From IMG/VR virus record IMGVR_UViG_3300045999_010033, positions 1-64,000 of that record: 64,000 bases of DNA; one strand, 5' to 3'. Shown piece by piece: positions 7,721-61,408 of this stretch (its first letter is position 1; each line of letters starts with the position of its first letter). Position numbers and translations under genes: made by a program. The notes beneath the pieces are model-generated. The model was not told where the DNA came from, ran no database searches, and saw only the letters and a list, made by a program, of their open reading frames with translations. This stretch comes from a virus.

Positions 7721-7941
7721 ATCAATTGCGCATTATATATCTTATTCCAATATTCGTGTCCTTCCGGTGTATCACGCCATACAAACCCGGCATCTATAAA
7801 AGATTCAAACGTGTCAAAATCATAAGATAGAAAGGTAGCTATAGTCCCTTTATCTTTTGGTCGTTTGTGATTAACCCGATTCTTACAAAATAGGATTTGG
7901 TCCTCTTTACTTAATTTACCCAGCCATTCTACCGCTTTCAT
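7717..7941 (-). CDS. TPEGHxYW-family small protein (paralog 3)
   Basis: Paralogy. Confidence 0.55.
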   Translation of the reverse strand: MKAVEWLGKLSKEDQILFCKNRVNHKRPKDKGTIATFLSYDFDTFESFIDAGFVWRDTPEGHEYWNKIYNAQLI

Positions 7942-7950
7942 ATCTTATAT

Positions 7951-8190
7951 TTATTTATCTTTATGTGCAATCGTATCCCAATAATCGTGCCCTTCGGGGG
8001 TATCTTCCCACATAAATGCATGGTCAATAAACTGACTAAACGAATCATATTCAAGAATCAGATATTGCGCGATTGTCAATCCGCGCTTTGTAACCTCTCC
8101 ACGATTTCTGTGGTTTACTCTATTCTTACAAAATAGGATTTGGTCTTCTTTACTTAATTTACTCAGCCATTCTACTCCTAGCTTTCTCAT
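7951..8190 (-). CDS. TPEGHxYW-family small protein (paralog 4)
   Basis: Paralogy. Confidence 0.55.
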   Translation of the reverse strand: MRKLGVEWLSKLSKEDQILFCKNRVNHRNRGEVTKRGLTIAQYLILEYDSFSQFIDHAFMWEDTPEGHDYWDTIAHKDK

Positions 8191-8409
8191 AATATATGTT
8201 TTTATACTTTAATTAATATCCACATTGTATTGTCAAAGTCCATTGCCGATTGAACCAACCGTAAGATAATATAATCGCTTTAGTATAAACACCAGTTTCC
8301 AAAAAATGGTCTGAATGATATACAAGCTGAATATACGGAAGGATGTGCCATTCATCTCGCTTCCACACCGGCCGGCGGTAACGGCTGAAGCTTATTATAA
8401 TACCATTTT

Positions 8410-8848: not shown

Positions 8849-9099
8849 TATATTCGGTATTTTGATAGTATATCACTCCAATATTGTCGGCCTTCGGGTG
8901 TGCTATTCCAAACGAATCCACGCTTCATAAAGACTTCAAAACTTCGACATTTACTTTGCAAAAAGAAAGAAATGGATCCGACATTATCAAGATTTTTTAA
9001 ATACTTAACCTGTACCGCATATGGTAATTTATTCAGATAATATAATCCGTTTTTCATTTTATATTCATTTTGCAGTCGGAGCGGGACTCGAACCCGCAA
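8848..9099 (-). CDS. TPEGHxYW-family small protein (paralog 7)
   Basis: Paralogy; N-terminus may overlap the tRNA-like element. Confidence 0.45.
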   Translation of the reverse strand: MRVRVPLRLQNEYKMKNGLYYLNKLPYAVQVKYLKNLDNVGSISFFLQSKCRSFEVFMKRGFVWNSTPEGRQYWSDILSKYRI

Positions 9100-9160
9100 C
9101 GCTAAACCGTATAGGATGAGATGACCGTTTCCTCATTATAAGCTATCCGACCGACCAGCC
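9072..9160 (-). tRNA. tRNA-like gene (T-arm GCGGG-TTCGAGT-CCCGC and acceptor GGTCGGA/TCCGACT clear; anticodon arm not resolved)
   Basis: Canonical T-loop and 7-bp acceptor pairing on minus strand; about 80 nt; anticodon undetermined. Confidence 0.45.
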
Positions 9161-12283: not shown

Positions 12284-12376
12284 TAGTCAGGACAGGATTC
12301 GAACCTGTACAAAGTTATTTACTATTACCTTTGCCAGCTCGGATGCTGGTGTGTCTACCTATTTCACCACCTGACC
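12284..12376 (-). tRNA. class-II tRNA-like element (acceptor GGTCAGG/CCTGACT, D-arm, long V-arm, T-arm ACAGG-TTCGAAT-CCTGT; anticodon loop non-canonical 6 or 8 nt)
   Basis: Manual fold; one of three related copies (also 51344 and 52019). Confidence 0.5.
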
Positions 12377-27104: not shown

Positions 27105-28598
27105 TCACTTCAATTTAGAACGAATCTCATCGAAGGTAATCCGATTGTGGAATGTACCATCTTTGTAGATAGTATTCAACGCACCATGTCGTTCTTCTTC
27201 CCAAGATACTTTATCCTTCAGTTCATAGTTTTTATGATGAAGTTTACCCAATGAATCGGATTCCATTACTTCAACTACCTGCAACAAACCAGTAGCAGAT
27301 TTCTTTGTACCATCATCGGTGATAGGGTCTTTGAAGATTTCTCTACCTTCTTCGTTCACTTCAACATAAGTAGCCTTCATAGCGAAACCGAATGTATCGC
27401 GTGTGTTGTACTGATATGTGAATGAACCCACACCGAACACAATGTTAGTCGAAGCGAATCCCTTACTAGCGAGCCTTTGGCAAATTTCCTCAGCCCTCTC
27501 AAGCGTAATAGAGTCACCATAGATTGCTCCAATGTGAGGGTCTAATACTTTGTAACCCTGCTCATTGATTGTACCGCCAAACACATCCCAAAGCAATTCA
27601 ATCACACCTTTATATGAAGGATGTGTTGCTTGTTCCGCCGAGTACATATCAGGCTTTGTGTTTAAACCACACACAATATCGGTAGGATTACCACTATCAG
27701 GTCTGATTACCAATTTACCATCACGTGCCATAATCTTATCTTTCAGTACAACAACGTGCTCCGTACATACTTTCCACAAGTCCCAAGTATCGGATACAAC
27801 CGAAAGGATACCGGTGGGATATGTGTCCAACAATCTACTGAACGTTCCGATTTCATCATCTTTACTACCTGCACACATTACACTATGTTCGGTTGCATTT
27901 ACACTACCAACAACCATACCTTTTGCTCCATAGAATTTGCGAGCACCGTGAATTACTGGAAGACTATCCGACCCCAAGAACGATGTGGCATGTCCAAGAC
28001 CAGAACTGATTGTTACATCAATACTATCAAGACCACGCATTGAGAAGTCATGTGCCTGCCAATCAACAAACCACGCACGTTCCTTGTCCGTTTTATCCTG
28101 CCACTTCGTCAATACTTTACGATATTGATGTGCTATGGTAGCGGATGTCATAGGCTTCCAAAGCAAGTTAGAAATAATAGTTTCCAAATAGTTCGTAATC
28201 CAATAGAAATCGGGGTGAGTATTACGAATGGTCAGAACCGGCACCTTAATAGGAACGGTAGTACCTTCGGTGATTGCTTTCACTTCAATCGGAAGATAAC
28301 CCAAATCGTGCAACCTTTCAAAGTGCGAAACATCATAGTCAGTACCAAGGTAAAGACTCAGTTCCTCTTTGATTTCAGCGATAACTACATCCTTTGGCTG
28401 ACTGAAAAATTCCTTTTCAAAAGCCTCGTGGATTTCCATCATAACCATTTGCTGTCCAAACGATACGACTTCATCACATCCTTTAGGAGCGTGTTTGTTA
28501 CTACGCGGTGTGAAGTTTGAATATACCATAGTCGTACCTTTGGGATATTGTTGATGGTGTCCTGTCTTGTAACCGTCAGTAAGAAGAAGCGGATTCAT
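27105..28598 (-). CDS. nicotinamide phosphoribosyltransferase family protein (NAMPT/NadV-like; candidate Namat of NARP1)
   Basis: 497 aa; N-terminal 'LLTDGYKTGHHQQYP' matches the NAMPT 'DSYK.THYKQYP' signature. Confidence 0.8.
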   Translation of the reverse strand: MNPLLLTDGYKTGHHQQYPKGTTMVYSNFTPRSNKHAPKGCDEVVSFGQQMVMMEIHEAFEKEFFSQPKDVVIAEIKEELSLYLGTDYDVSHFERLHDLGYLPIEVKAITEGTTVPIKVPVLTIRNTHPDFYWITNYLETIISNLLWKPMTSATIAHQYRKVLTKWQDKTDKERAWFVDWQAHDFSMRGLDSIDVTISSGLGHATSFLGSDSLPVIHGARKFYGAKGMVVGSVNATEHSVMCAGSKDDEIGTFSRLLDTYPTGILSVVSDTWDLWKVCTEHVVVLKDKIMARDGKLVIRPDSGNPTDIVCGLNTKPDMYSAEQATHPSYKGVIELLWDVFGGTINEQGYKVLDPHIGAIYGDSITLERAEEICQRLASKGFASTNIVFGVGSFTYQYNTRDTFGFAMKATYVEVNEEGREIFKDPITDDGTKKSATGLLQVVEVMESDSLGKLHHKNYELKDKVSWEEERHGALNTIYKDGTFHNRITFDEIRSKLK

Positions 28599-28621
28599 AA
28601 TATATGTGTTTATTGTTTGAA

Positions 28622-29524
28622 TTAAATTAAGAAATTGGTAAATACATTGAACTGGTGTGTTATGATTTCATCAGCTTCAATATCTTTGTAAGAGTTTGTT
28701 GTTATAATTTTATTAAAATGTGGAGTAAGTACGTCCAAACCGGCGGAGAAGATACCGTGAGTAACTACCAAATAGATTTGAGCCGTAGGTAATTGTTCAC
28801 GTATTGCTTTAGCCAATTCAATAAAGGTACGTCCTCCATCACAAATATCATCAATGATAACATACTTTAATGGTACATCTGTCTTACTAATCGGTAGATT
28901 CGGTACTTCCGTTTTTATGATTTGCCCCGTCTTTATATCACGGATTTTATTCGCCGTAGCAATTGATTGAACTCCCAATGCTTTAGCTACATCAAATGTT
29001 TTTTTGTATGCGCCGGAATCGGGGCTTATCAAACATAATTCGTCTGGATTAAAGGTTGAGCCTGATATTTTGGATACAGCGAAGTTGATAAATTGATAGT
29101 ATGTATTGGTTGCTTTTTTAAGTCCATTCACACACGCTTCAATTACATCCGAATGTGGATCTAATACCTTAACCCTATCAAAGTCCAAAGAGTTGATAAC
29201 TGGAGAAATAACATCTTTTACATAATTGATTCCACCCTCAACAAATTTTCTATCGGAACGAGCTCCTATAAAGTAAGGAACTGATAAATCAATCTTCATT
29301 GTTTTGTTCAATCCTCTAATTGCTTTCACTCCACAAATAATCAATTCCAAATCGGAAAAGTTATTTAGACGAGATACTATCGTTACATTAGATGTACCAT
29401 GTCGGATTTTATCATGTTCGGAATTGGGAATTTCTAAACTTTGCTGCCCATCGGGGAATTTTGATACCTTATATAAAAGGTTTTCTATTCTATTTGCTGT
29501 GGGATTTGTAAGGTCTAATTTCAT
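28622..29524 (-). CDS. ribose-phosphate pyrophosphokinase family protein (Prs-like; candidate ADP-ribose pyrophosphokinase Adps)
   Basis: 300 aa; 'VIIDDICDGGRTF' PRPP-binding motif; immediately upstream of the NAMPT-like gene. Confidence 0.6.
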   Translation of the reverse strand: MKLDLTNPTANRIENLLYKVSKFPDGQQSLEIPNSEHDKIRHGTSNVTIVSRLNNFSDLELIICGVKAIRGLNKTMKIDLSVPYFIGARSDRKFVEGGINYVKDVISPVINSLDFDRVKVLDPHSDVIEACVNGLKKATNTYYQFINFAVSKISGSTFNPDELCLISPDSGAYKKTFDVAKALGVQSIATANKIRDIKTGQIIKTEVPNLPISKTDVPLKYVIIDDICDGGRTFIELAKAIREQLPTAQIYLVVTHGIFSAGLDVLTPHFNKIITTNSYKDIEADEIITHQFNVFTNFLI

Positions 29525-29918: not shown

Positions 29919-31145
29919 TTATTTTTCGTGTTTCAATAAAAAAGTATTTGATATTACTTTGAATGAGATAGTTCTATCTAAACTACGAATCACTACACCC
30001 TCCCTATCAAAGTTTGGATTAAGTACCGATTTAGCATCAGCGTAACTCAACAATTCACTCACATCATTCGGTAAGATAAAGTTTGTATCTAAAACCGGCA
30101 CAGTCTCCAACCCAAAGGTATGTTCCATCGTAGCCATAAACATCGGAAGGCCATAATAGGTTTGGTTATCAATATCAAAGATGTTAAAGAACCTTACGGT
30201 CTGACCTTTTATCTTATATGGATTACCCTGAATACCCTCACCGATTAACTCACCCTGAATGGAAAGGTTCTTACCATAACTCCTAAGTTTGTTTTCCAAG
30301 TCAAGCTCTCTAGCCACCTTCCAAAATGTGTTTTCCGTTTTAGGTCGTTCAATGCCATCATCACACATAACCATACCGGGTACGAATGGTTCAGGTTCAC
30401 TCAATTCCAAATTACGGCTACACACTCCAAACACACCATCTTTGTAATAGAACGTTGCTGAACTACCATCAAGCTTTTCCGTTACATAGAACTGATGCTT
30501 TGATTGTAATCTCCAGCCTTCATATTCTTTTGTTAAGTTTTGTACACGCTCTTCATCGGTCTTTCTAATGAATGATGGGAACAACCCTTTCACTTTGCCG
30601 GATAGTTCGGCCGGTATTGGTGGCTCATATTTAGTGATACCCAACCTTTCAGTTACATCTTCACCGTCTACTATGGTGATAAGTCCTTTATATAATGTAC
30701 TATCTAACATAGTAAGTGGTAACAACAAACCTTGTGAAACCTGTCCACGCAATCGAATCGTTTTCAATCTGAATCCCTCACTACCATCTTTCATTTTCTT
30801 ATATGAAGATTTACGAAGAAACTCAAACTCATCACAAATCGGTAAGAACGAATCAACTTCACAATAAACACAAAGGTCACCCGGCTTATACTCGCCCTTT
30901 TTAGTTACTACCTTCCATCCGCCAACAACGGCAACTTCGATAGCATCCGCACCATCAATCGGTTGGATATCGGTAATCGTTCTTATACTTGCTAACTTCC
31001 TATCGGTCATAATTACGGAATTTTGTTCGTTTACAAATCTATCATTTTCGGTGAATCCGGCTGAATCGTATTCCGGCACATCATCTTCACTCATTGCTTG
31101 TAAGGCCATATCTTGCCATTCTTTCATTTCATCTTTCATATCCAT
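29919..31145 (-). CDS. ATP-dependent RNA ligase family protein (KxDG nucleotidyltransferase)
   Basis: Motif I 'TEKLDGSSATFY'; 408 aa. Confidence 0.55.
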   Translation of the reverse strand: MDMKDEMKEWQDMALQAMSEDDVPEYDSAGFTENDRFVNEQNSVIMTDRKLASIRTITDIQPIDGADAIEVAVVGGWKVVTKKGEYKPGDLCVYCEVDSFLPICDEFEFLRKSSYKKMKDGSEGFRLKTIRLRGQVSQGLLLPLTMLDSTLYKGLITIVDGEDVTERLGITKYEPPIPAELSGKVKGLFPSFIRKTDEERVQNLTKEYEGWRLQSKHQFYVTEKLDGSSATFYYKDGVFGVCSRNLELSEPEPFVPGMVMCDDGIERPKTENTFWKVARELDLENKLRSYGKNLSIQGELIGEGIQGNPYKIKGQTVRFFNIFDIDNQTYYGLPMFMATMEHTFGLETVPVLDTNFILPNDVSELLSYADAKSVLNPNFDREGVVIRSLDRTISFKVISNTFLLKHEK

Positions 31146-42769: not shown

Positions 42770-42828
42770 ACAACACGTTTTTACATTGTTACAAAGTTTT
42801 AAATTTTACATAATACAAATACTAATAG

Positions 42829-42910
42829 TACCCCGAATCGGACTCGAACCGATACGCCTTTCGGCACCGCATCCTAAGTGCGGCGTGACTGCCAATTCCA
42901 CCACCAGGGC
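42829..42910 (-). tRNA. tRNA-Leu(TAG)
   Basis: Manual fold: AC stem CCGCA/TGCGG, loop CTTAGGA, long V-arm, T-arm ATCGG-TTCGAGT-CCGAT. Confidence 0.7.
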
Positions 42911-43006: not shown

Positions 43007-43087
43007 TACCTCGAATCGGACTCGAACCGATACGTCTTTCGACACTTGATTTTGAGTCAAGCATGTCTACCATTCCATCACCAAGGC
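43007..43087 (-). tRNA. tRNA-Leu(CAA)
   Basis: AC stem CTTGA/TCAAG, loop CTCAAAA, long V-arm. Confidence 0.7.
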
Positions 43088-43198
43088 GAATCCTGCTCTT
43101 TTATCTACAACTTAATGTAGTCGAACATCCAACACTATAACATACGTTTTATAGTTGCTACCATTGGAGGCAGGCAGAATTGAATCTATGTTCACTGC

Positions 43199-43357
43199 TG
43201 ACAGGGTTGGATTCGAACCAACAAACCGAGATTCAGTAACGAGCACATAGTGCTGCAGCATTGTGGTCAACCCATACTCATTACCTATTTCTATATCGGC
43301 GACTGCGAGACGAGCAGCTGTGTTTGCCAAGATATTACATCGTTTCACCACCTGTCA
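43199..43357 (-). ncRNA. 159-nt tRNA-like gene with large internal insertion (acceptor TGACAGG/CCTGTCA, T-arm GTTGG-TTCGAAT-CCAAC)
   Basis: 3' half canonical; only complementary 5' acceptor strand lies 159 nt upstream, exactly 7 nt after tRNA-Ser 3' end. Confidence 0.4.
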
Positions 43358-44360: not shown

Positions 44361-44471
44361 TGCCCCAGGCGGGGGTCGAACCCGCACTCGCTTTCAGCGA
44401 ACAAGATTAACGCCGCGACGTGTTGAAGCTTGCGTTAAGTCTTGCATGTCTACCTATTCCATCACCAGGGC
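44361..44471 (-). tRNA. tRNA-Leu(TAA)-like gene with 26-nt insertion in the anticodon loop
   Basis: Acceptor, D-arm, AC stem CAAGA/TCTTG, V-arm TCGC-TGAAA-GCGA and T-arm all fold; loop is 33 nt CTTAA[..]AA with internal 7-bp hairpin TTAACGC/GCGTTAA. Confidence 0.5.
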
Positions 44472-44526: not shown

Positions 44527-45594
44527 TTAATTATCCAAATCTTTCCGAAAAGGTTTTGCGTATTTAGGGCGAATACATTTCCATATAATAGAATCGTAAT
44601 CCCTCCCATCTAACATAGAAAATAATATTGATGCATGATTATAACGGATTGCTTTGATTGCAAACTCTTTTCTGCTCAAATTTTCACTACGAATGATTGA
44701 GAATATTTCCAAATAATCACGTTTAATATTTTCAAATCTAACTACCAAGTCTTTTACGGTATCCTTTACCCACGTATCAAATTCGTCCGGCACTCTTTCC
44801 AATAACTCATTCAAATCACCACCGGTCCGCAACAATTCCCAGATATCTACATTCGAAACATTGGTGATTATCTTATGAAGTCTTACATACTCTTCACCTT
44901 TGATTTTCATTCTCTTCCCACCTTTGAAACGTATTACATAACCTTCGGCATCATTTGAAATCATATCCTTCAACTTAGTGAAGTCAGTAACACCATTGTA
45001 CTTTCTAACAACTCTTACATCGGTAAAAAGTGCTACTGATTTAGTCAAAGTTTCAAATTCAATTTCGTCCAAAGTATCTCTATCATATGCACCCAACAAT
45101 ACCAAACCCTCAAATGGGTAGCGGCAGACTATCCGATTCTCATCATATATGATTTCAAAAAGGTAAGTCCAATTTTTTCTCAATCCAGTTGTAGGATAGT
45201 TTTTCAATATAGATAATCCCTTCAACATTTCAGTTGCCTTAACGGCTTGCTCTGAAACGAATGAACCTCTCGTTGCTACTATCCAATCTCCGTTATAGTA
45301 AAATGCAATTCCTAAAGAACCGTCCATCTTTTCAAAGACTTCAAATGATTCGTTTGGAATTTCACTATTGGATAATTCTTCCATATTGAAAAATTTTGGA
45401 AATGGTTTGGCTACCACAGTGCCTTCATTATCCAAAACCAATCCACGGCAATCCAATGTAACTGCATCCCACAATCGGTCGTATTGGCACGTTCTGCTGT
45501 AATTGTAGATTGATAAAGGTAACGTTGGATGGTCTTGCTTAACTATCAATCCTCGTCCGATATAATCGTTCAATATGTTTAATGGATATTTCAT
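44527..45594 (-). CDS. RNA ligase family protein (KxDG; Rnl2/DRB0094-like)
   Basis: 'FEKMDGSLGIAFY' motif I; 355 aa; upstream of Pnk-like kinase. Confidence 0.6.
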   Translation of the reverse strand: MKYPLNILNDYIGRGLIVKQDHPTLPLSIYNYSRTCQYDRLWDAVTLDCRGLVLDNEGTVVAKPFPKFFNMEELSNSEIPNESFEVFEKMDGSLGIAFYYNGDWIVATRGSFVSEQAVKATEMLKGLSILKNYPTTGLRKNWTYLFEIIYDENRIVCRYPFEGLVLLGAYDRDTLDEIEFETLTKSVALFTDVRVVRKYNGVTDFTKLKDMISNDAEGYVIRFKGGKRMKIKGEEYVRLHKIITNVSNVDIWELLRTGGDLNELLERVPDEFDTWVKDTVKDLVVRFENIKRDYLEIFSIIRSENLSRKEFAIKAIRYNHASILFSMLDGRDYDSIIWKCIRPKYAKPFRKDLDN

Positions 45595-45995
45595 AATTTT
45601 ACACTAAAACGTTTCCGCATTTTTTCCAAAGTCTCATCCGGTACACCATGTACGGATTTATTACCATGTCTATTTTCTACAATCAATGATACAACGGTGT
45701 ATCCATAGCTCTTTGCTAACTTCAAATATGGTTCAAGTTCCCTTTCGGTAGTTGCCGTATTGGATACTACAATCTCTTGTCCATACTGAGTCGTTTCACT
45801 CATTTGCATCAATTCCTCAACACGCTTTTGACAATCCAAATGGGCTTCATGCAATTTCGAAGCGTCAAAATTGTAGTTACCGTTTGAATCGTAAAAGTAT
45901 TGGTCTGCCTCAAACACATTATTTGAAAACATATATTTAGCAAATGAGCTTTTACCACTACCGGGTAAACCACGTAATATGATTAATGTTTTCAT
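45591..45995 (-). CDS. polynucleotide 5'-kinase (T4 Pnk kinase-domain-like)
   Basis: 'MKTLIILRGLPGSGKSSFA' closely resembles T4 Pnk N-terminus 'MKKIILTIGCPGSGKSTWA'; 134 aa. Confidence 0.65.
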   Translation of the reverse strand: MKTLIILRGLPGSGKSSFAKYMFSNNVFEADQYFYDSNGNYNFDASKLHEAHLDCQKRVEELMQMSETTQYGQEIVVSNTATTERELEPYLKLAKSYGYTVVSLIVENRHGNKSVHGVPDETLEKMRKRFSVKL

Positions 45996-47449: not shown

Positions 47450-48112
47450 TTATTTATATTTTTCTACTGATTCATGATGGTCGAAACTCATTAGGCTTTT
47501 GATTGGTTGCCTTCTCATACGGGTAGCAATTTCACTTACCGAAATCGGCCTCAAACCATTACCGTCCACACCAACATCCATCATTTTACCTGGTCCAATT
47601 CTACTAGCCATAGGTAAATGAACGTGTCCATGCAAATGAATTGCACCATTGGCCATTTGGTCCCAACTGGCAATAGGAAAGTGCATCAGTACAAACAATT
47701 CACTACTAACAAGCGGAGTACCCACATTCCGTTTTACAGTTAAATGTAAGTATTTGTTTACGGAACTGAAATGTGATTGACATCCTTCTTTGTTTCTCTC
47801 AATATGATGGTCGTGGTTTCCGGTGATGATGTGAATGTTCTTACATACGATACGATTACGGAAGGCTTCGATTTGCTCAAACCCACCAAAACTCCAATCG
47901 CCCAAATGAAAAAGAATATCATCTTGTCCGACTTCGGCGTTGATGTTATTCACCAATGTATCGTTCATTTCATCCAATGATTTGAAATCTCTACACGTCA
48001 CCGGGTCTTTCCATTGTGTTGTAGTGGAACAGATGTTGGCGTGATTGTAGTGTGTATCAGATGTGAACCACAATTGTTGACCTTTATTTAAACTTATTTT
48101 CATTTGTTTCAT
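47450..48112 (-). CDS. calcineurin-like metallophosphoesterase
   Basis: 'FTSDTHYNH', 'GDWSFGG', 'GNHDHH' motifs. Confidence 0.6.
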   Translation of the reverse strand: MKQMKISLNKGQQLWFTSDTHYNHANICSTTTQWKDPVTCRDFKSLDEMNDTLVNNINAEVGQDDILFHLGDWSFGGFEQIEAFRNRIVCKNIHIITGNHDHHIERNKEGCQSHFSSVNKYLHLTVKRNVGTPLVSSELFVLMHFPIASWDQMANGAIHLHGHVHLPMASRIGPGKMMDVGVDGNGLRPISVSEIATRMRRQPIKSLMSFDHHESVEKYK

Positions 48113-50653: not shown

Positions 50654-50727
50654 TGGCGGTTCGTAGGGGTTACGCTCCCCTGCCTTCGCAGTGACAGTGC
50701 GATATTCTACTATTATACTAACGAACC
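50654..50727 (-). tRNA. tRNA-Asp(GTC) with non-canonical T-loop (AGCGTAA) and encoded CCA
   Basis: Acceptor GGTTCGT/ACGAACC perfect, AC stem TCGCA/TGCGA loop CTGTCAC. Confidence 0.6.
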
Positions 50728-50817: not shown

Positions 50818-51027
50818 TTATATTATCTTACAATACTATATACAACCGTCAACATCCAACCATCTCCATTGCTGTTGGTATGTACTGATTCAATCTTTAT
50901 TGTGTTTGGTCCAAATTCTGCAACCCATGCATCAAATTGCCGATTCAATTCATCACCAGCAAAGGTGCCGCGTTTTCCACTTGTAAATACTTTAATCATA
51001 TACTTTTATTTTTATTTTCTGCGTCAG

Positions 51028-51152
51028 GGTGGGGAATCGAACCCCACACTCTCATACCAGGAGCTATGCCTAGAGTTACATCACGTATAGTGTTTTCACA
51101 CATCCCCTATATTATGCGACGGCCTTAACGTTTACCCATTACGTCACCTGAC
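51028..51152 (-). ncRNA. 125-nt tRNA-like gene with internal insertion
   Basis: 5' GTCAGGT-GA-CGT-AATGGGTAA-ACG (acceptor + D-arm) and 3' TGGGG-TTCGATT-CCCCA-CCCTGAC separated by about 50 extra nt. Confidence 0.4.
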
Positions 51153-51343
51153 TACCACTTCTATTTAATTTTGAATAGCCTATCGAAGAATCGTTTTAGA
51201 GTCGGTTTTAGTTTTCGATTTCTTTTTAGCTCTTCTTGATACGCTATTACTTCCAATACCTCATCAAACCTAATTGGAGTTCCTCTACGGACATCATCGG
51301 ATAACTTTTCTAATCTTTCGTTTTTCATTTTTTTATTGTTCAG

Positions 51344-51439
51344 TAGTCAGGACACGAATCGAATCTGTATTTAGGATTGTTTAATCGGGCTTCATACCGT
51401 ACCTACCTTTCGGTGCGTCTACCGTTCCGCCACCTGACT
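51344..51439 (-). pseudogene. degenerate copy of the AGTCAGG class-II tRNA-like element
   Basis: Acceptor AGTCAGG/CCTGACT and D-arm intact, T-stem and AC arm disrupted. Confidence 0.4.
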
Positions 51440-51446
51440 ATTTTAT

Positions 51447-51701
51447 TTATATCCACTTAATACGATTTTCTGTGTCCATCCATTGTTGGAATTGATTTTT
51501 GTTAACCAAACACGTTCTCTTTTCTTCACCAAACATATTATTCATTGTAATTGATGTATCAGGGACAGAAATCAAACACTCAACAATCAAATGATCCCCT
51601 ATCTCACCATGTTCATCATCATAATCTTTTTCTTTCCATCCTAAAATTTCCAAAACGTATTTATTATCTATTCTAATGAATTTTAAAAGACTTTTTTCCA
51701 T
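51447..51701 (-). CDS. hypothetical protein
   Basis: ORF track. Confidence 0.45.
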   Translation of the reverse strand: MEKSLLKFIRIDNKYVLEILGWKEKDYDDEHGEIGDHLIVECLISVPDTSITMNNMFGEEKRTCLVNKNQFQQWMDTENRIKWI

Positions 51702-51702
51702 G

Positions 51703-52011
51703 TTATTTAGTTTTTGCGATTTCTACATTCAAAGCATTATTGAGCAATGAATACAATTTTGATGTAAAATCTCTCGAAAAGATTGACATCCAATTCATCT
51801 CTGTTTCCAACTCCTCAATAGATTCACGAATACTATCTTGATATCCTTTATGGTTAGTCACAATCCACAATGCAAGATTATTAATTCTTACTTTAAGTGA
51901 CTCGGATAAACATCCGTTATTTTGCATCATACAAAAAACTTGGTCTGCCCATTCATTACCACCAGTATCAAACAACTTGTTTTTGTCAGTGTATTTTTTC
52001 ATAATAATCAA
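51703..52011 (-). CDS. hypothetical protein
   Basis: ORF track. Confidence 0.45.
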   Translation of the reverse strand: MIIMKKYTDKNKLFDTGGNEWADQVFCMMQNNGCLSESLKVRINNLALWIVTNHKGYQDSIRESIEELETEMNWMSIFSRDFTSKLYSLLNNALNVEIAKTK

Positions 52012-52018
52012 TTTTTAG

Positions 52019-52096
52019 TAGTCAGGACAGGATTCGAACCTGCATGGTCACTCCTTTGTGTACACCGCGAGCTGCGTTACCATTCGCCACCTGACT
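52019..52096 (-). tRNA. AGTCAGG class-II tRNA-like element (no canonical anticodon stem found)
   Basis: Acceptor AGTCAGG/CCTGACT, D-arm GCG-AATGGTAA-CGC, T-arm GCAGG-TTCGAAT-CCTGT. Confidence 0.45.
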
Positions 52097-53358: not shown

Positions 53359-53880
53359 TTATTTATTTAGTTTACTAATACACTCATCAACTTTGTCACG
53401 CAACCTACCACCATTTCCGTGGTCACCATTCACCTGAACGTGTCTCCATTGTGGAACACGCATCCATTTGAATTGGCCGGCGAGATTCAAATCATCAATG
53501 GCAATCCAATTTTTCACTCCGTTATCCTTTACCCATTTACGAATTTCTGCCGCACGTTCCCATTCGATTGGTGGACGGCTCATTTTCTTCCATAGGTCTT
53601 GATGTGTGGTGATATCAATCAACAAGTGACCAGGTATTCCAAAGTGTTCAAATACTCGTTTCATTTGGATAAAACTGAAATGCTTTCTCCAATCCGAGCT
53701 CAATACAAGTCGTGCATCAGTCTCACGAAGAACTTTGTGTAGAGCCTGGCAATCTTCCTCTACCCATCTGTATGGGATTTTGAACAATTGTGAACCGGCG
53801 TGCAGTTCAACACGGCCCGTTCCCCATGTTCCCCATGCCAATGGGCCATCAACATCAATGAATATGATTTTATTGTTCAT
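53359..53880 (-). CDS. HAD-family phosphatase (T4 Pnk 3'-phosphatase-domain-like)
   Basis: 'IIFIDVDGPLA' DxDG(T/P) motif I at N-terminus. Confidence 0.55.
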   Translation of the reverse strand: MNNKIIFIDVDGPLAWGTWGTGRVELHAGSQLFKIPYRWVEEDCQALHKVLRETDARLVLSSDWRKHFSFIQMKRVFEHFGIPGHLLIDITTHQDLWKKMSRPPIEWERAAEIRKWVKDNGVKNWIAIDDLNLAGQFKWMRVPQWRHVQVNGDHGNGGRLRDKVDECISKLNK

Positions 53881-55628: not shown

Positions 55629-55700
55629 CGCTGATGGAGAATTACGATATCCCGACCTGAGTCTTAACAGGACCCTGCTCTACCTCTGAGCTACATCAGC
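55629..55700 (-). tRNA. tRNA-Asn(GTT)
   Basis: Acceptor GCTGATG/CATCAGC; AC loop CTGTTAA. Confidence 0.7.
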
Positions 55701-55989: not shown

Positions 55990-57060
55990 AAAGGTGAGAT
56001 TACCCTTTGTTGAGAACAGCCTTTAGAAAGATTATTAGTTCCTCTCTTATCCACCACCTTTTGAGCGGTATCCGTTCAGTGTCGGTTAGTAATGCTAACC
56101 ACTCATTAAGTTACTGACTACTCTCTTATTACTCCCCTTCTTCTACCCTGCCGAGCAGATTCACACTTGCGGTGTTAGAAGCTTTTCGTAAGAATCACAG
56201 ACCTCTTGCGGAGGTATCGTGGCTGGGAACAACTCCCAACTATGTAGACACCTTTCATCCGTAACTGATGGGCACTTATGCTTCATTTTGATTTTATAGT
56301 TTTGCTACCAAATGCAAGTATAAAGTTGGTTTGTAGATTGATTCAGGTAGTGGCCCATCTGCCAGCTCCCTCACCTTTTGAGTGAGGAAATACTAAACTA
56401 CCCGATGTGATATCCCTATCACCATATTTTAAGTCTGCTTCATAACTCATGCTTTGGTAAGCGAAGGTTAAGGGCAACAACGACACCACTCGTACTTTAC
56501 CATACCTTTCGGTTTTAAGTGAACTCTAATATTGGATAACGAAATGATACGAAGGGATTAAGTTCGTACTTCTCACATATACCCTATGGGTTATTCCTAT
56601 TATCCTTCCGGATTCAAATGAACTATCTACTTAGCCCATTCACCCAGACACCTCACCTACAGCCTTGCCGTCAGTTACTAAGTCCGAGTGGTATCCCACT
56701 TGCCTACTCAACCTCTTTTGGGAGGCGCATCGGTGCTTAACCAAACACCAACACTTTATCCTACTTTCGTAGTTTATTTAACGACCATAGGCGGCCGATT
56801 TGTACTATGTAACGCGAGGTTACTATGTACTCATTTCGTAATGTAAAAGAACTTTAATGTGAACCAAACTTACGCCCTATTAAGGATACTCCGTTTATAC
56901 TACTTTCACATCTGAATCGGTAGTGCGATTTTACTAAAGATAAGTAAAGTTTTTCAAATTACCAAATCTTTATTCGTTGAACATTTTCGGTTATGTTTAT
57001 TTACACCATATAATACTTCCTACTTCTGAACAAGTTTATAAAGTTAAGTAAAGTTTTTCA
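55990..57060. ncRNA. about 1.07-kb ORF-free region flanked by tRNAs; candidate large structured ncRNA
   Basis: No ORF of 60 aa or more in any frame of ORF track; internal short repeats (CACCTTTTGAG, AAGTAAAGTTTTTCAA). Confidence 0.35.
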
Positions 57061-57079: not shown

Positions 57080-57151
57080 TTGCGGGGGGTGGAATCGAAC
57101 CACCGTAGGCGAGGCTTATGAGACCTGCGGATAACCAACAATCTCCCCACA
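57080..57151 (-). tRNA. tRNA-Met(CAT) (or Ile-lysidine) copy 1
   Basis: AC loop CTCATAA with 4-bp stem; T-arm GGTGG-TTCGATT-CCACC. Confidence 0.55.
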
Positions 57152-57659: not shown

Positions 57660-57810
57660 AGTGGACGTGGTGGGAGTCGAACCCACGTCTTGATAAGAAA
57701 TCCTACCACCAACGTATCACAAGTTTATTCCTACATTCGGGTTGGACACCTATCTAACATTCTCACACCGTGTTAGCCGACGGTGATAGTGGTTCGATTC
57801 GGCCACTATG
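57660..57810 (-). pseudogene. tRNA-like remnants (T-arm GTGGG-TTCGACT-CCCAC at 3' side; class-II D-arm-like GCATAGTGGCCGAAT at 5' side)
   Basis: Fragments resemble the class-II tRNAs elsewhere but no consistent acceptor pairing. Confidence 0.3.
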
Positions 57811-58132
57811 CCACATAGAGAATCACATTCTATTTTAATCCCACGATGTGTGCGGGAGCGGTTACGCAGCTACTGCGTACTCAGCGTTGGCGTATGTGTT
57901 GCCAGTTATTCTTCGATACAATATTAAGGGATAGTATCATTTCCCTACTTGTGATGGTAACACTCACATACCAATCAATTACCAATACACGCCCATATTT
58001 ATAAGAACTATATATCTCCCATTTTTGGTCGATAACCAAAGTTACTACTTTTTTTTGGATTTACCAAACATTTCGGAAAATATTTTTTAAATCGTTGAAA
58101 ATCAACCGATTACGTATTAAAAAAAGAAATAT

Positions 58133-58873
58133 CTATCGGTTTTTCCTCAAAATTAGGGCCGTTTCCATCCACTTTTTTCCTATCGGATTGACCACCGGGG
58201 CATCAACAAATCGGCGAACGACTCGTTTTACATCTGAATCCGGATTAGAAGACTCTGAGTTTTCAACAATATACAATCGGTTTCCAAATATCGTGCGATA
58301 TTCACCCAATGCAGACTGGCATTTATTCCATAACCCTTCAACAAGCTCGTTTGATATGGAACGTTCCCGCTCACTATTACGTTTCAATGCAACTTCTAAT
58401 GTAGTATTAACGAACACCATTGCCGCATCATAACCGGCGGCTTCCATTTCAGATTTACGGCCGGCAATGTAAGCCGGATTGGCACCGGTACTATCCATTA
58501 TCATTCCCAGTCGCCCTTCCATATACATCTTACGTGTCGCAGATACCATACGAAATGCCTTTTGTCGTATACCGGAGCCAGTTTTATCTCGGCCGGTATC
58601 TATTACTGATGAATAAAACTCCGGGTCTTCATCTCGTATCTTACCCAACTCCTTTGGATTGATACCATTTTTTTGTAGAAACGCCTCAAAAGCATGATCC
58701 GAATTTATTACCTTCAATCCCATGCCGGTAAGGCTTGAACGCTTCGGCAATCCAAATATCTGGTCTATGATATACGATTTACCCGAACCGGGTCCACCTG
58801 CAGTAAACACACATTTGAGTACACCACGATTGAATACTCCTTCGTTTAATAAGGGTTTTAATAGGATAGCCAT
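58133..58873 (-). CDS. P-loop nucleoside/nucleotide kinase-like protein
   Basis: 'FTAGGPGSGKSY' Walker A; 246 aa. Confidence 0.5.
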   Translation of the reverse strand: MAILLKPLLNEGVFNRGVLKCVFTAGGPGSGKSYIIDQIFGLPKRSSLTGMGLKVINSDHAFEAFLQKNGINPKELGKIRDEDPEFYSSVIDTGRDKTGSGIRQKAFRMVSATRKMYMEGRLGMIMDSTGANPAYIAGRKSEMEAAGYDAAMVFVNTTLEVALKRNSERERSISNELVEGLWNKCQSALGEYRTIFGNRLYIVENSESSNPDSDVKRVVRRFVDAPVVNPIGKKWMETALILRKNR

Positions 58874-60404: not shown

Positions 60405-60609
60405 CTTTTTTATGTGTTTTTACTCTTACCGATTTTAATGATTTACCTTCTTTCCATTCTTTTATGATATGTGGTTTCCAATTTGTTTCAACTGATATTG
60501 GGCCATTTGGAAATTTTATCAAATCATATTTCCAAATCTGCTGACAATCATCATCTGAATAAATTACTTCCCATTTGGAAGGTTGCTTGATTTGTTTCTC
60601 CGTGCTCAT
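60340..60609 (-). CDS. hypothetical protein
   Basis: ORF track; overlaps neighbour. Confidence 0.35.
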   Translation of the reverse strand: MSTEKQIKQPSKWEVIYSDDDCQQIWKYDLIKFPNGPISVETNWKPHIIKEWKEGKSLKSVRVKTHKKDAKTTTGKRNTSVDAKVRKSG

Positions 60610-61408
60610 GATTAGGTGATGGTAATTCTATTTTATCTAATATACTTAAATTATCTGCCGCAGATTGCCTCCACTTTAACGCTACCCATATCAATATTAT
60701 TATGGTTGCCGAAACTACTCCTGCTACAACTCCCTTTTTAAGGGTATTTTTCCAAGAAAATGATTCTTCAGTATCTGAATTTTCCCAATGTAAAATTGTT
60801 TCTTGTTTTTGCTCTTCGTGGTTAGCCCTTTGCTCAATTTCATCAAGTTTTTTAACAATACGTTCAAGTATTTCAGTACTCTTATCTATCGATTCTTTTG
60901 TGGATTGTCCACTTTGGAATTTCGGCTCTTCTTTTTTTATTTCAGAACGAACATCCATATTTTTTAGGGTATCATTTTCTTGCGTTGCTTTTAGCATTGC
61001 TTTATTCATAAGTGGAGTAAAGTAGACATCATCGCTATAAACTCCACATATGGCTTCGTAGATGGTTTCGGGCATGTCTCCCTTTGTTAGGTATGAATTC
61101 GCTCCCAACGCAAGCATTTTTGAAATCATCGATGCGTTATTGTGCATTGAAACGATTACTATTTTAATATCAGGATACTCTTGTTTTAATTTTGGTAGAG
61201 TTTCTATACCATCCATTATGGGCATGTTAATATCCAATAGGATAACATTGGGTGTCATATGTTTTAGTAAATGCATAAGTTGCACACCATCTCCTGCTTC
61301 TCCTATCACATCTATATTTTGATAGAACGATAATGTTGATTTTATACCCTGTCTAAATAATACATGGTCATCACATATAATAACCTTAATTTTTGATGCC
61401 GATTCCAT
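60551..61408 (-). CDS. response-regulator receiver (CheY-like REC) domain protein with C-terminal coiled coil and transmembrane helix
   Basis: 'KVIICDDHVLFRQGI...ILLDINMPIMDG...IVIVSMHNN' receiver signature (DD, phospho-acceptor D, K); C-terminal 'VVAGVVSATIIILIWVALKW' TM segment; no HTH output. Confidence 0.6.
   Translation of the reverse strand: MESASKIKVIICDDHVLFRQGIKSTLSFYQNIDVIGEAGDGVQLMHLLKHMTPNVILLDINMPIMDGIETLPKLKQEYPDIKIVIVSMHNNASMISKMLALGANSYLTKGDMPETIYEAICGVYSDDVYFTPLMNKAMLKATQENDTLKNMDVRSEIKKEEPKFQSGQSTKESIDKSTEILERIVKKLDEIEQRANHEEQKQETILHWENSDTEESFSWKNTLKKGVVAGVVSATIIILIWVALKWRQSAADNLSILDKIELPSPNHEHGETNQATFQMGSNLFR

Follow-up and report, generated by a model that had tools for sequence, protein, structure and literature searches.

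The 64,000 nucleotides (nt) of viral DNA analyzed here (positions 1 to 64,000 of IMG/VR virus record IMGVR_UViG_3300045999_010033; hereafter the window) contain, on the minus strand at 51022-51153, an element with tRNA-like ends that an earlier note had described as a tRNA gene with an insertion, perhaps a common intron-like element. The balance of the evidence favors a different reading, in which this locus encodes a tRNA-shaped non-coding RNA and not a decoding tRNA. It is probably a diverged copy of a widespread and apparently undescribed family of phage small-RNA genes, in which the top half of a leucine tRNA is kept and the anticodon half is swapped for varied RNA modules. The kept part, termed the chassis, would comprise the acceptor stem, D arm, and T arm of a class-II (leucine-type) tRNA together with the elbow and core nucleotides U8, A14, A15, G18G19, and U48 and a UUCGAAU T loop, and the anticodon and variable arms would have given way to modules that vary between copies.

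Read on the minus strand, positions 51153-51021 have the sequence AGTCAGGTGACGTAATGGGTAAACGT-T-AAGGCCGTCGCATAATATAGGGGATGTGTGAAAACACTATACGTGATGTAACTCTAGGCATAGCTCCTGGTATGAGAGT-GTGGGGTTCGATTCCCCAC-CCTGAC-GC, in which ~80 nt lie between a tRNA-Leu-type 5' end (acceptor strand, U8, a D stem of 3 base pairs (bp), and a GG-containing D loop) and a perfect T arm with its 3' acceptor strand. All of the end pieces listed in the earlier note were found on that strand, namely GTCAGGT-GA-CGT-AATGGGTAA-ACG from 51152 downward and TGGGG-TTCGATT-CCCCA-CCCTGAC ending at 51023. The sequence also bears out the note's tRNA-like gene, whose 5' half is of class II (tRNA-Leu-type), whose T arm and acceptor are canonical, and whose length is in excess by ~45-55 nt. 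The 3' coordinate given there, 51028, is 5-6 nt short. With the last acceptor position at 51023 and the discriminator G next to it at 51022, the locus is 130-131 nt long, not 125 nt. The predicted mature RNA would run from G51152 to G51022 (131 nt), with the CCA unencoded.

Two registers with identical base pairs can be drawn for the locus. That of the earlier note pairs GTCAGGT with CCCTGAC, which leaves U7 and C66 mismatched and makes the T stem 5 bp long. The second reads A51153-GTCAGG, U8 G9, and ACG-TAATGGGTAAA-CGT at the 5' end and, at the 3' end, a 6-bp T stem (GTGGGG/CCCCAC) followed by CCTGAC (6 bp). The second register fits the chassis family better, with U8, G9, A14, A15, G18G19, and U48 falling at their usual places, and the acceptor and T stems form a continuous 12-bp helix that is split 6/6 in comparison with the usual 7/5. 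The 5' scaffold (51128-51153, minus strand) consists of the acceptor strand (A)GUCAGG at 51152-51147, U8 G9 at 51146-51145, and a D stem of ACG (51144-51142) and CGU (51130-51128) closing the D loop UAAUGGGUAAA, which holds A14, A15, and G18G19. The lineage-specific insert of ~80 nt (51048-51127, minus strand) takes the place of the anticodon and variable arms. The 3' scaffold (51022-51047, minus strand) is made up of the T stem GUGGGG (51047-51042)/CCCCAC (51034-51029), the T loop UUCGAUU (51041-51035), CCUGAC (51028-51023), and the discriminator G51022. The 5' scaffold can be aligned to the family consensus AGUCAGGUGgcgGAAUuGGUAgAcgc and is 100% conserved in relatives L006-L013; the 3' scaffold is likewise 100% conserved in relatives.

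The tRNA-like arrangement at the locus is far from chance. The window holds 31 T-arm motifs (5 bp plus TTCRANN) versus 3.25 in dinucleotide shuffles, and 28 T arms with a 6-bp acceptor partner 60-220 nt upstream versus 1.05 in shuffles. The canonical tRNA parts present in the locus are the acceptor stem, the D arm with G18G19, and the T arm with a UUCRANY loop; no anticodon arm (5-bp stem, 7-nt loop, U33, and purine 37) follows the D arm. ARAGORN did not call the locus with intron mode on or off, and the Rfam tRNA model (RF00005) left it unmatched both at the gathering score (29 bits) and at E ≤ 10 on a 401-nt slice (50900-51300). The earlier note had named a covariance-model score below threshold, together with the lack of a processed tRNA-sized RNA, as grounds for giving up the tRNA reading; since the Rfam tRNA score is below threshold, that reading fails by the note's covariance-model measure, but a model specific to the family does score the locus.

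This family first came to light when the window was scanned for T arms preceded by a matching acceptor strand, which yielded further uncalled tRNA-like elements. Two of these, at ~12284-12376 and ~52019-52096, have 3' ends identical to each other and 5' ends nearly that of the locus. At least 120 IMG/VR contigs contain a shared 22-mer, AGGTTCGAATCCTGTCCTGACT, and among the matches listed a single contig has up to seven copies within 5 kb. Extension of each listed copy to the 5' strand that pairs with it yielded 142 distinct elements, whose lengths cover 64-181 nt continuously. The 5' half of these elements, which lies outside the 22-mer query, was nearly invariant (AGTCAGG-TG-GCG-GAATTGGTAGA-CGC), with conservation of T8 in 135/142, G9 in 128/142, A14 in 119/142, A15 in 123/142, A73 in 131/142, and C74 in 138/142. 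The middle, of 20-130 nt, had no common sequence or length. As RNA, the family 5' end reads AGUCAGG-UG-GCG-GAAUUGGUAGA-CGC and the 3' end ACAGG-UUCGAAU-CCUGU-CCUGACU-A.

A covariance model of the chassis (R1) was built and run over the window. On 102 R1 matches from 48 sources, in an alignment that was itself fitted to R1, the three chassis helices had 98.6% of cells paired and 14 of 15 pairs with double-sided changes, which none of 500 shuffles equaled. A metagenome scan, with a pattern that fits canonical members and not the form of the locus, gave further canonical copies with covarying T stems. A few users of the chassis are ordinary tRNAs, such as a 71-nt tRNA-Lys(UUU) in L056, so that the chassis is a shared body and not the marker of one function. 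A recurrent sub-type (L155, L157, L161-L163, L170, and L066) combines the variable middle with a further hairpin, set in the D loop, whose apex is a conserved GGG-GUGU-CCC or is GUUA-tipped.

Of 185,579 species-representative genomes, 18 contained the 22-mer. These are all metagenome bins, for the most part of freshwater Bacteroidota, with no isolate among them; a sequence so rare in genomes and confined to such bins indicates that the chassis is carried by phages and was not copied from a host tRNA. An origin as attP or from a host tRNA was rejected on the same counts. Among cultured phages (INPHARED), no record had both chassis halves together, and Tenacibaculum phage pT24 gave weak look-alikes. 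Rfam, at gathering and E-value thresholds, contains no separate family for these elements: its tRNA model gives family members weak matches (31-42 bits) or nothing, and no Rfam family matched the locus. The full-text literature searched, sequence strings included, holds no description of the family; in one survey of IMG/VR for structured RNA candidates, those that are tRNA-like are mentioned in no more than general terms (PMC10690425).

The locus is assigned to this family with moderate confidence. It has in common with the consensus AGUCAGGUG, CCUGAC, all of the core tertiary nucleotides, the architecture, and the strand, and two canonical copies lie within 1.1 kb on the same strand. Its 5' end reads AGUCAGGUG-ACG-UAAUGGGUAAA-CGU, in which only the D-stem letters differ (ACG/CGU for GCG/CGC) and pairing is kept. 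At the 3' end the T loop and CCUGAC are present, but the T stem is 6 bp long, G replaces U at position 72, and the discriminator is G or C in place of A73. The insert of ~80 nt is unrelated to every other insert and lies within the 20-130 nt of the family modules. With 31.4 bits (E ~1e-5; match span 51021-51153), the whole element is the fourth best R1 match in the window, and canonical members score 52-72 bits. The genuine tRNA-Leu genes at 42829-42910 (29.9 bits) and 43007-43087 (28.9 bits) are the best-scoring real tRNAs under R1. Because the score does not separate the locus from tRNA-Leu, the case for its membership is made by the acceptor sequence it shares, its architecture, and its neighborhood.

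Sequence constraint within the locus was assessed in 11 metagenome contigs that carry it at 95-100% identity. In relatives at least 95% identical, the 55 scaffold positions show no change, and all seven variable columns fall in the 78-nt insert (hypergeometric p ~0.02). The flanking 58-codon open reading frame (ORF), ORF58, is 94-95% identical in the same relatives. An invariant scaffold beside a varying insert and ORF58 is indicative of selection on the tRNA-like part. A tentative fold of the insert has two hairpins, P1 at 51121-51079 (CGUCGC/GUGAUG, UAUAG/CUAUA, and a GUGU-GAAA-ACAC tip) and P2 at 51073-51057 (CUAGG-CAUAGCU-CCUGG), and the variable columns sit in predicted loops, bulges, or a terminal pair.

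Across the family, 241 distinct elements carry 194 insert types, 168 of which were seen once. The inserts are slightly more stable than shuffles (mean minimum free energy (MFE) z -0.61, p 1e-12), and insert types recur in unrelated contigs with compensatory changes, for example AGAGCAA/UUGCUCU versus GUUGAA/UUCAAC around a conserved loop. Conservation of types with compensatory changes and structure beyond that of shuffles argue that many inserts are under selection. Internal T-arm-like hairpins are enriched in the inserts (8/194 versus 0.27). Anticodon-arm-like hairpins are not (7/194 versus 9.0 ± 2.9 in shuffles), and the idea that inserts serve as anticodon-loop decoys was rejected on this ground.

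The repeated chassis is also demonstrably a recombination site that mediates the loss or exchange of cassettes. The order along this part of the window is ORF102-ORF84, the chassis copy at 51344, ORF55, the locus, ORF58, and tRNAs. Compared with the window at 51439-52096, contigs L007 and L008 have lost ORF102 and ORF84 exactly between two chassis copies and retain a hybrid element with the 5' chassis of the 52019 slot and a 51344-type insert. In L006, the slot orthologous to 52019-52096 holds a 151-nt element with an unrelated insert.

From this arrangement we infer how the RNA might be made and used. The locus is probably transcribed within the array of tRNAs and small ORFs, as part of the array transcript, because ORFs lie close on both sides (the 55-codon ORF ends 8 nt before it and the 58-codon ORF begins 23 nt after it) and no promoter-like or terminator-like site flanks it. 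RNase P and RNase Z, measuring the 12-bp acceptor/T helix, would then excise the 131-nt RNA, and CCA would be added afterward. The tRNA-like half would provide processing, stability, and an L shape, and the ~80-nt insert with its two hairpins may be the specific functional part, binding a putative protein or RNA partner, conceivably in phage-host conflict. In DNA, the repeated chassis serves homologous recombination, which swaps inserts and deletes or exchanges small ORFs between copies. The identity set of Escherichia coli leucyl-tRNA synthetase (LeuRS) is A73, A15-U48, and G18G19, a set on which work with minimal tRNA-Leu also bears. Canonical members carry this set and so might be leucylated; the locus, with its discriminator G or C and 6/6 helix split, probably is not.

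A broader proposal is put forward tentatively, and we regard it as possible rather than probable. Uncultivated phages, mostly of freshwater Bacteroidota, may possess a natural form of “tRNA-scaffold display,” in which the fixed top half of tRNA-Leu is the chassis for a large and fast-turning library of structured modules, each with its own protein or RNA partner (for example, in host defense or among translation factors). Canonical copies would perhaps be leucylated without an anticodon, the chassis would double as a recombination site, and the locus would be one diverged cartridge.

Other tRNA-like elements of the window, all on the minus strand, place the locus in context. Canonical family members lie at 12284-12376 (93 nt, R1 72 bits, called “tRNA-???” by ARAGORN), 52019-52096 (78 nt, 61.8 bits), and 51344-51439 (96 nt, 51.8 bits). 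The insert type of the last is also found in the unrelated contigs L024 and L075, where ACC-GAAA-GGU has become AUC-GAAA-GAU. A diverged tRNA-like element at 9073-9152 with the acceptor GGUCGGA/UCCGACU scores 28.3 bits under R1 and was uncalled by ARAGORN or Rfam. Locus A (43198-43357, R1 30.3 bits), which along with the element at 9073-9152 and the locus itself can be counted among the diverged copies in the window, belongs to a separate, conserved class of tRNA-like elements of 155-168 nt with homologs in L026, L051, L089, and L104. In this class the acceptor stems covary, the D loop contains a variable hairpin, a 5-bp stem that also covaries is capped by an invariant 7-nt loop, UCGUCU(C/A), and the giant variable arm carries conserved UAUGGGUUGACCACAAAGCCGGC; RNAalifold on five sequences of the class gave 41 pairs, 18 of them with compensatory changes. 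Locus B (44361-44471, ARAGORN intron mode, R1 30.3 bits) has the otherwise ordinary body of a class-II tRNA-Leu(UAA), but its anticodon loop contains 26 additional nt. These lengthen the anticodon stem through a perfect 7-bp helix (UUAACGC/GCGUUAA), in which the anticodon is buried, and are flanked by a TTAA direct repeat. No other Leu(UAA) gene was called in the window, so either the additional nt are removed or the tRNA is non-functional.

The earlier note had taken 43199, 44361, and the locus to have the same architecture. This is true of tRNA-like ends with extra internal sequence, but the position of that sequence differs from locus to locus, and the three inserts have no sequence in common, with Smith-Waterman scores no better than shuffles. 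The three “insertion” loci are three different things. With unrelated inserts and no restorable anticodon arm at the locus, a tRNA gene with an insertion or a common intron-like element is not borne out; that oversized tRNA-like genes are a feature of this phage holds, at least seven such loci being present in the window.

All genes in the window are on the minus strand, and the region from 42.8 to 58 kb contains 24 tRNA genes called by ARAGORN. Genes for tRNA-Asp(GUC) (50657-50727) and tRNA-Asn(GUU) (55629-55700) were detected by Rfam only and have unusual T loops (as a pair, AGCGUAA and AUCGUAA). A tRNA gene with the anticodon CAU and a degenerate D arm (57081-57151) was missed by ARAGORN and by Rfam at the gathering score. 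ARAGORN and Rfam identified a transfer-messenger RNA (tmRNA) at 57661-57994 with the tag GNTYANAEYAVAA that adjoins tRNA-Met, and Rfam identified a full-length GOLLD RNA (55991-56405, 296.6 bits) directly upstream of a tRNA-Gly gene inside the array. A link between GOLLD RNA and the chassis family was rejected, a GOLLD copy being near 1 of 120 listed loci. A Pfam scan revealed an Rnl1-type RNA ligase (44527-45594) and an AAA_33, polynucleotide-kinase-like protein (45591-45995), directly downstream of which lies locus B, as well as a metallophosphoesterase (47450-48112), a HAD_SAK_2 protein (53359-53880), and a second kinase (58133-58873; like the first, a P-loop kinase), all encoded on the minus strand. 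A second RNA ligase, of the Rnl2 type, is encoded farther off (29919-31145, minus strand) alongside NAD-salvage genes (27105-29524) for NAPRTase and a PRPP-synthetase-like protein. Homologs of the RNA-repair and NAD-salvage genes recur near family members in L029, L054, L090, and L106, and the presence of an RNA-repair tool kit among tRNA genes matches what has been described for jumbo phages (PMC7824862). At 60551-61408 (minus strand) is a gene for a protein with a response-regulator receiver domain (94 bits) and no recognizable output domain. The top neighbor clusters of family loci include a DUF932 and a T5orf172 domain protein, and another is terminase-like by sequence.

A number of results weigh against a functional, family-derived RNA at the locus. 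It departs from the consensus in the D stem (ACG versus GCG), in the T stem (GUGGGG/CCCCAC), in having G72 and no A73, and in its 6/6 geometry, and its R1 score of 31.4 bits is in effect no higher than those of the genuine tRNA-Leu genes (29.9 and 28.9 bits). The MFE of its insert is not better than that of shuffles (z +0.72), which makes the P1/P2 fold tentative, and no homolog of the insert or of the 6/6 T arm was found in IMG/VR or the fetched loci beyond near-identical relatives, so that the insert is without covariation support. In the family as a whole, no insert motif is common to the members (no shared k-mer) beyond leftovers of the D arm, and no partner protein is common to the loci, the commonest neighbor cluster being present in 15 of 120 listed loci. 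The inserts of six window copies showed no more complementarity to the window sense strand than shuffles, which speaks against an antisense target there. Some copies may also be decaying, because the T stem of 51344-51439 is damaged: it has two non-compensating changes in the window (ACAGA/CGUGU) where L006 and L011 have ACAGG/CCUGU, and this element may be a decaying copy or contain a sequencing error.

These points bear on two of the rival explanations. The locus could be a decaying pseudogene, descended from a family member or from a tRNA-Leu, that recombination in the tRNA array has scrambled and that has lost its RNA function. The departures at positions 72 and 73 and the 6/6 split would be expected of such a relic, as would an insert no more stable than shuffles, the lack of a distant homolog in the searches above, the broken T stem of the neighbor at 51344-51439 in the window, and the demonstrably frequent recombination between copies. 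We nevertheless consider decay quite unlikely, given that nothing is broken in the 12-bp acceptor/T helix, in the D stem, or among the core tertiary nucleotides, that 0 changes in 55 scaffold nt against 7 in 78 insert nt and 94-95% identity of ORF58 point to purifying selection on the scaffold, and that the insert substitutions spare the interiors of the predicted helices. Alternatively, the locus could be mainly a processing and recombination module, at which RNase P and RNase Z “punctuation” tunes the mRNAs of the flanking small ORFs and a DNA repeat allows co-infecting phages to shuffle ORF cassettes, with the insert largely a passenger. The alternation of elements with small ORFs from ORF102-ORF84 to the tRNAs beyond ORF58, the want of an own promoter or terminator, the two-ORF deletion exactly between chassis copies, and the swapped insert at an orthologous slot all suit this explanation, as do a chassis whose primary sequence is conserved far past structural need and inserts with no common motif, target, or partner protein. 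It is less easily reconciled with insert types that are kept across unrelated contigs with compensatory changes, with inserts that are on average more structured than shuffles, or with the 20-130 nt of extra structured RNA, for which punctuation has no need since a minimal tRNA-like fold would do; it is rated as unlikely.

A third explanation stays closest to the earlier note: an interrupted tRNA-Leu, which would become a decoding tRNA-Leu(UAG/AAG) once a ~53-nt hairpin at position 26/27 had been cut out, perhaps through the joint action of an endonuclease and the phage kinase, phosphatase, and ligase. In a deletion scan in which every segment of 20-75 nt was removed from the locus and ARAGORN rerun, the sole tRNA-Leu solution was the removal of 53 nt at position 26/27, which gave tRNA-Leu(tag) with a score of 101.2. 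The 5' half of the locus is tRNA-Leu-like, relatives have a variant loop that reads AAG, likewise a Leu anticodon, and the same genome carries in locus B a true tRNA-Leu with an interrupted anticodon loop, together with Rnl1- and Rnl2-type ligases, AAA_33 kinases, a metallophosphoesterase, and HAD_SAK_2 in or near the tRNA region. But the score of this single solution among thousands of deletions is at the ARAGORN threshold, and the loop is non-canonical. The only anticodon-arm candidate, CUAGG-CAUAGCU-CCUGG, sits 53 nt downstream and has A33 and C37; its loop CAUAGCU reads CCAAGCU in relatives at least 95% identical, so that A or C stands at 33 and C at 37 where U33 and purine 37 are near-universal, and two of seven loop positions differ among near-identical relatives versus 0 of 55 in the scaffold. 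The 9-nt segment ahead of the T stem could not make a class-II variable arm, and a Leu(UAG) tRNA is already encoded at 42828-42910. No bulge-helix-bulge motif was found at the locus by inspection, 51127-51075 showing a 4-nt bulge on one strand only, and Rfam gave no Intron_gpI match in the window; the insert, moreover, is only ~80 nt long. The same Rfam library did detect a group I intron in the viral contig L023 (7609-7837, 97.8 bits), which abuts a tmRNA match (7832-8193). Over the whole family, ARAGORN intron mode returned scattered anticodons and intron positions, many with A34, and anticodon-like hairpins were not enriched. An intron is thus very improbable, and the locus should not be annotated as an intron-containing tRNA.

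With a tRNA-shaped non-coding RNA as the favored reading, the family can be compared with known systems. Bacterial class-II tRNA-Leu shares with it the acceptor, U8 G9, the 3-bp D stem, the GAAUUGGUAGA D loop, A15/U48, the T arm, and, in canonical copies, A73; the family consensus D arm UGGCGGAAUUGGUAGACGC corresponds to the D arm usual in bacterial tRNA-Leu, as in E. coli. Unlike tRNA-Leu, the family has neither an anticodon arm nor a class-II variable arm and ranges from 64 to 181 nt, and the locus in addition has no A73 and a 6/6 geometry. The species 1 and 2 stable RNAs of phage T4 (rnaC and rnaD) are likewise phage-encoded and lie in a tRNA cluster, on the same strand; their record annotates them as small stable RNAs, of 119-139 nt, and assigns no function. 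RnaC has a canonical T arm (CCGGGUUCGAAUCCCGG) at its end, with acceptor-like pairing (CGGAACG/CGUUUCG), but it has no sequence relationship to the family (R1 23 bits) and a 5' extension instead of an internal module, and the T4 RNAs are single copies without a multi-copy shared chassis.

The tRNA-like domain of tmRNA, which is charged by a synthetase that ignores the anticodon, resembles the family in topology: its acceptor stem and T arm are built from its 5' and 3' ends, and a large insertion stands where the anticodon arm would be. The family is far smaller, has no apparent tag frame or pseudoknots and no Rfam tmRNA match, and is of the Leu and not the Ala type. For the locus itself, tmRNA was rejected because neither Rfam nor ARAGORN gave a match and only 57661-57994 was called as tmRNA in the window. 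The bacterial Y RNA YrlA is another non-coding mimic of the acceptor, T, and D arms. It is reportedly partnered by Ro/Rsr, handled by tRNA enzymes, and tied to RNA repair or quality control, with its ends forming the Ro-binding stem and its tRNA-like part internal. Some jumbo phages also encode RNA repair or quality-control systems (PMC7824862). In the family, by contrast, the ends form the acceptor; a YrlA or Y RNA identity was rejected for the locus on this basis, there being no Rfam match and no Ro/TROVE domain among the 30 window proteins scanned with Pfam (a subset of the ORFs).

In the engineered “tRNA scaffold” and the TMERs of murine gammaherpesvirus 68, a tRNA body lends RNase P/Z processing and stability to an unrelated RNA module. 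The former is man-made, and the latter belong to a eukaryotic virus and have the tRNA-like part ahead of the hairpins, unlike the family. The literature searched described no natural system in bacteria or phages that sets hundreds of modules on one shared chassis. In the cassettes of T4-type phages, short promoter/stem-loop repeats between small accessory ORFs mediate modular shuffling; like the chassis, these repeats are recombination points between small ORFs, but they are promoter or terminator stem-loops and not tRNA-shaped.

If the favored reading is correct, phage annotation systematically mislabels or misses a common class of small-RNA genes, whose members appear as “tRNA-Undet,” receive unlikely anticodons, or go uncalled. 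The family would then be a natural counterpart of the engineered tRNA scaffold and would offer hundreds of evolutionarily tested RNA modules for the fishing of partners. It bears on the wealth of tRNA-like genes that large phages carry beside RNA-repair enzymes, on the aminoacylation in vivo of RNAs without an anticodon, and on the shuffling of accessory cassettes between phages.

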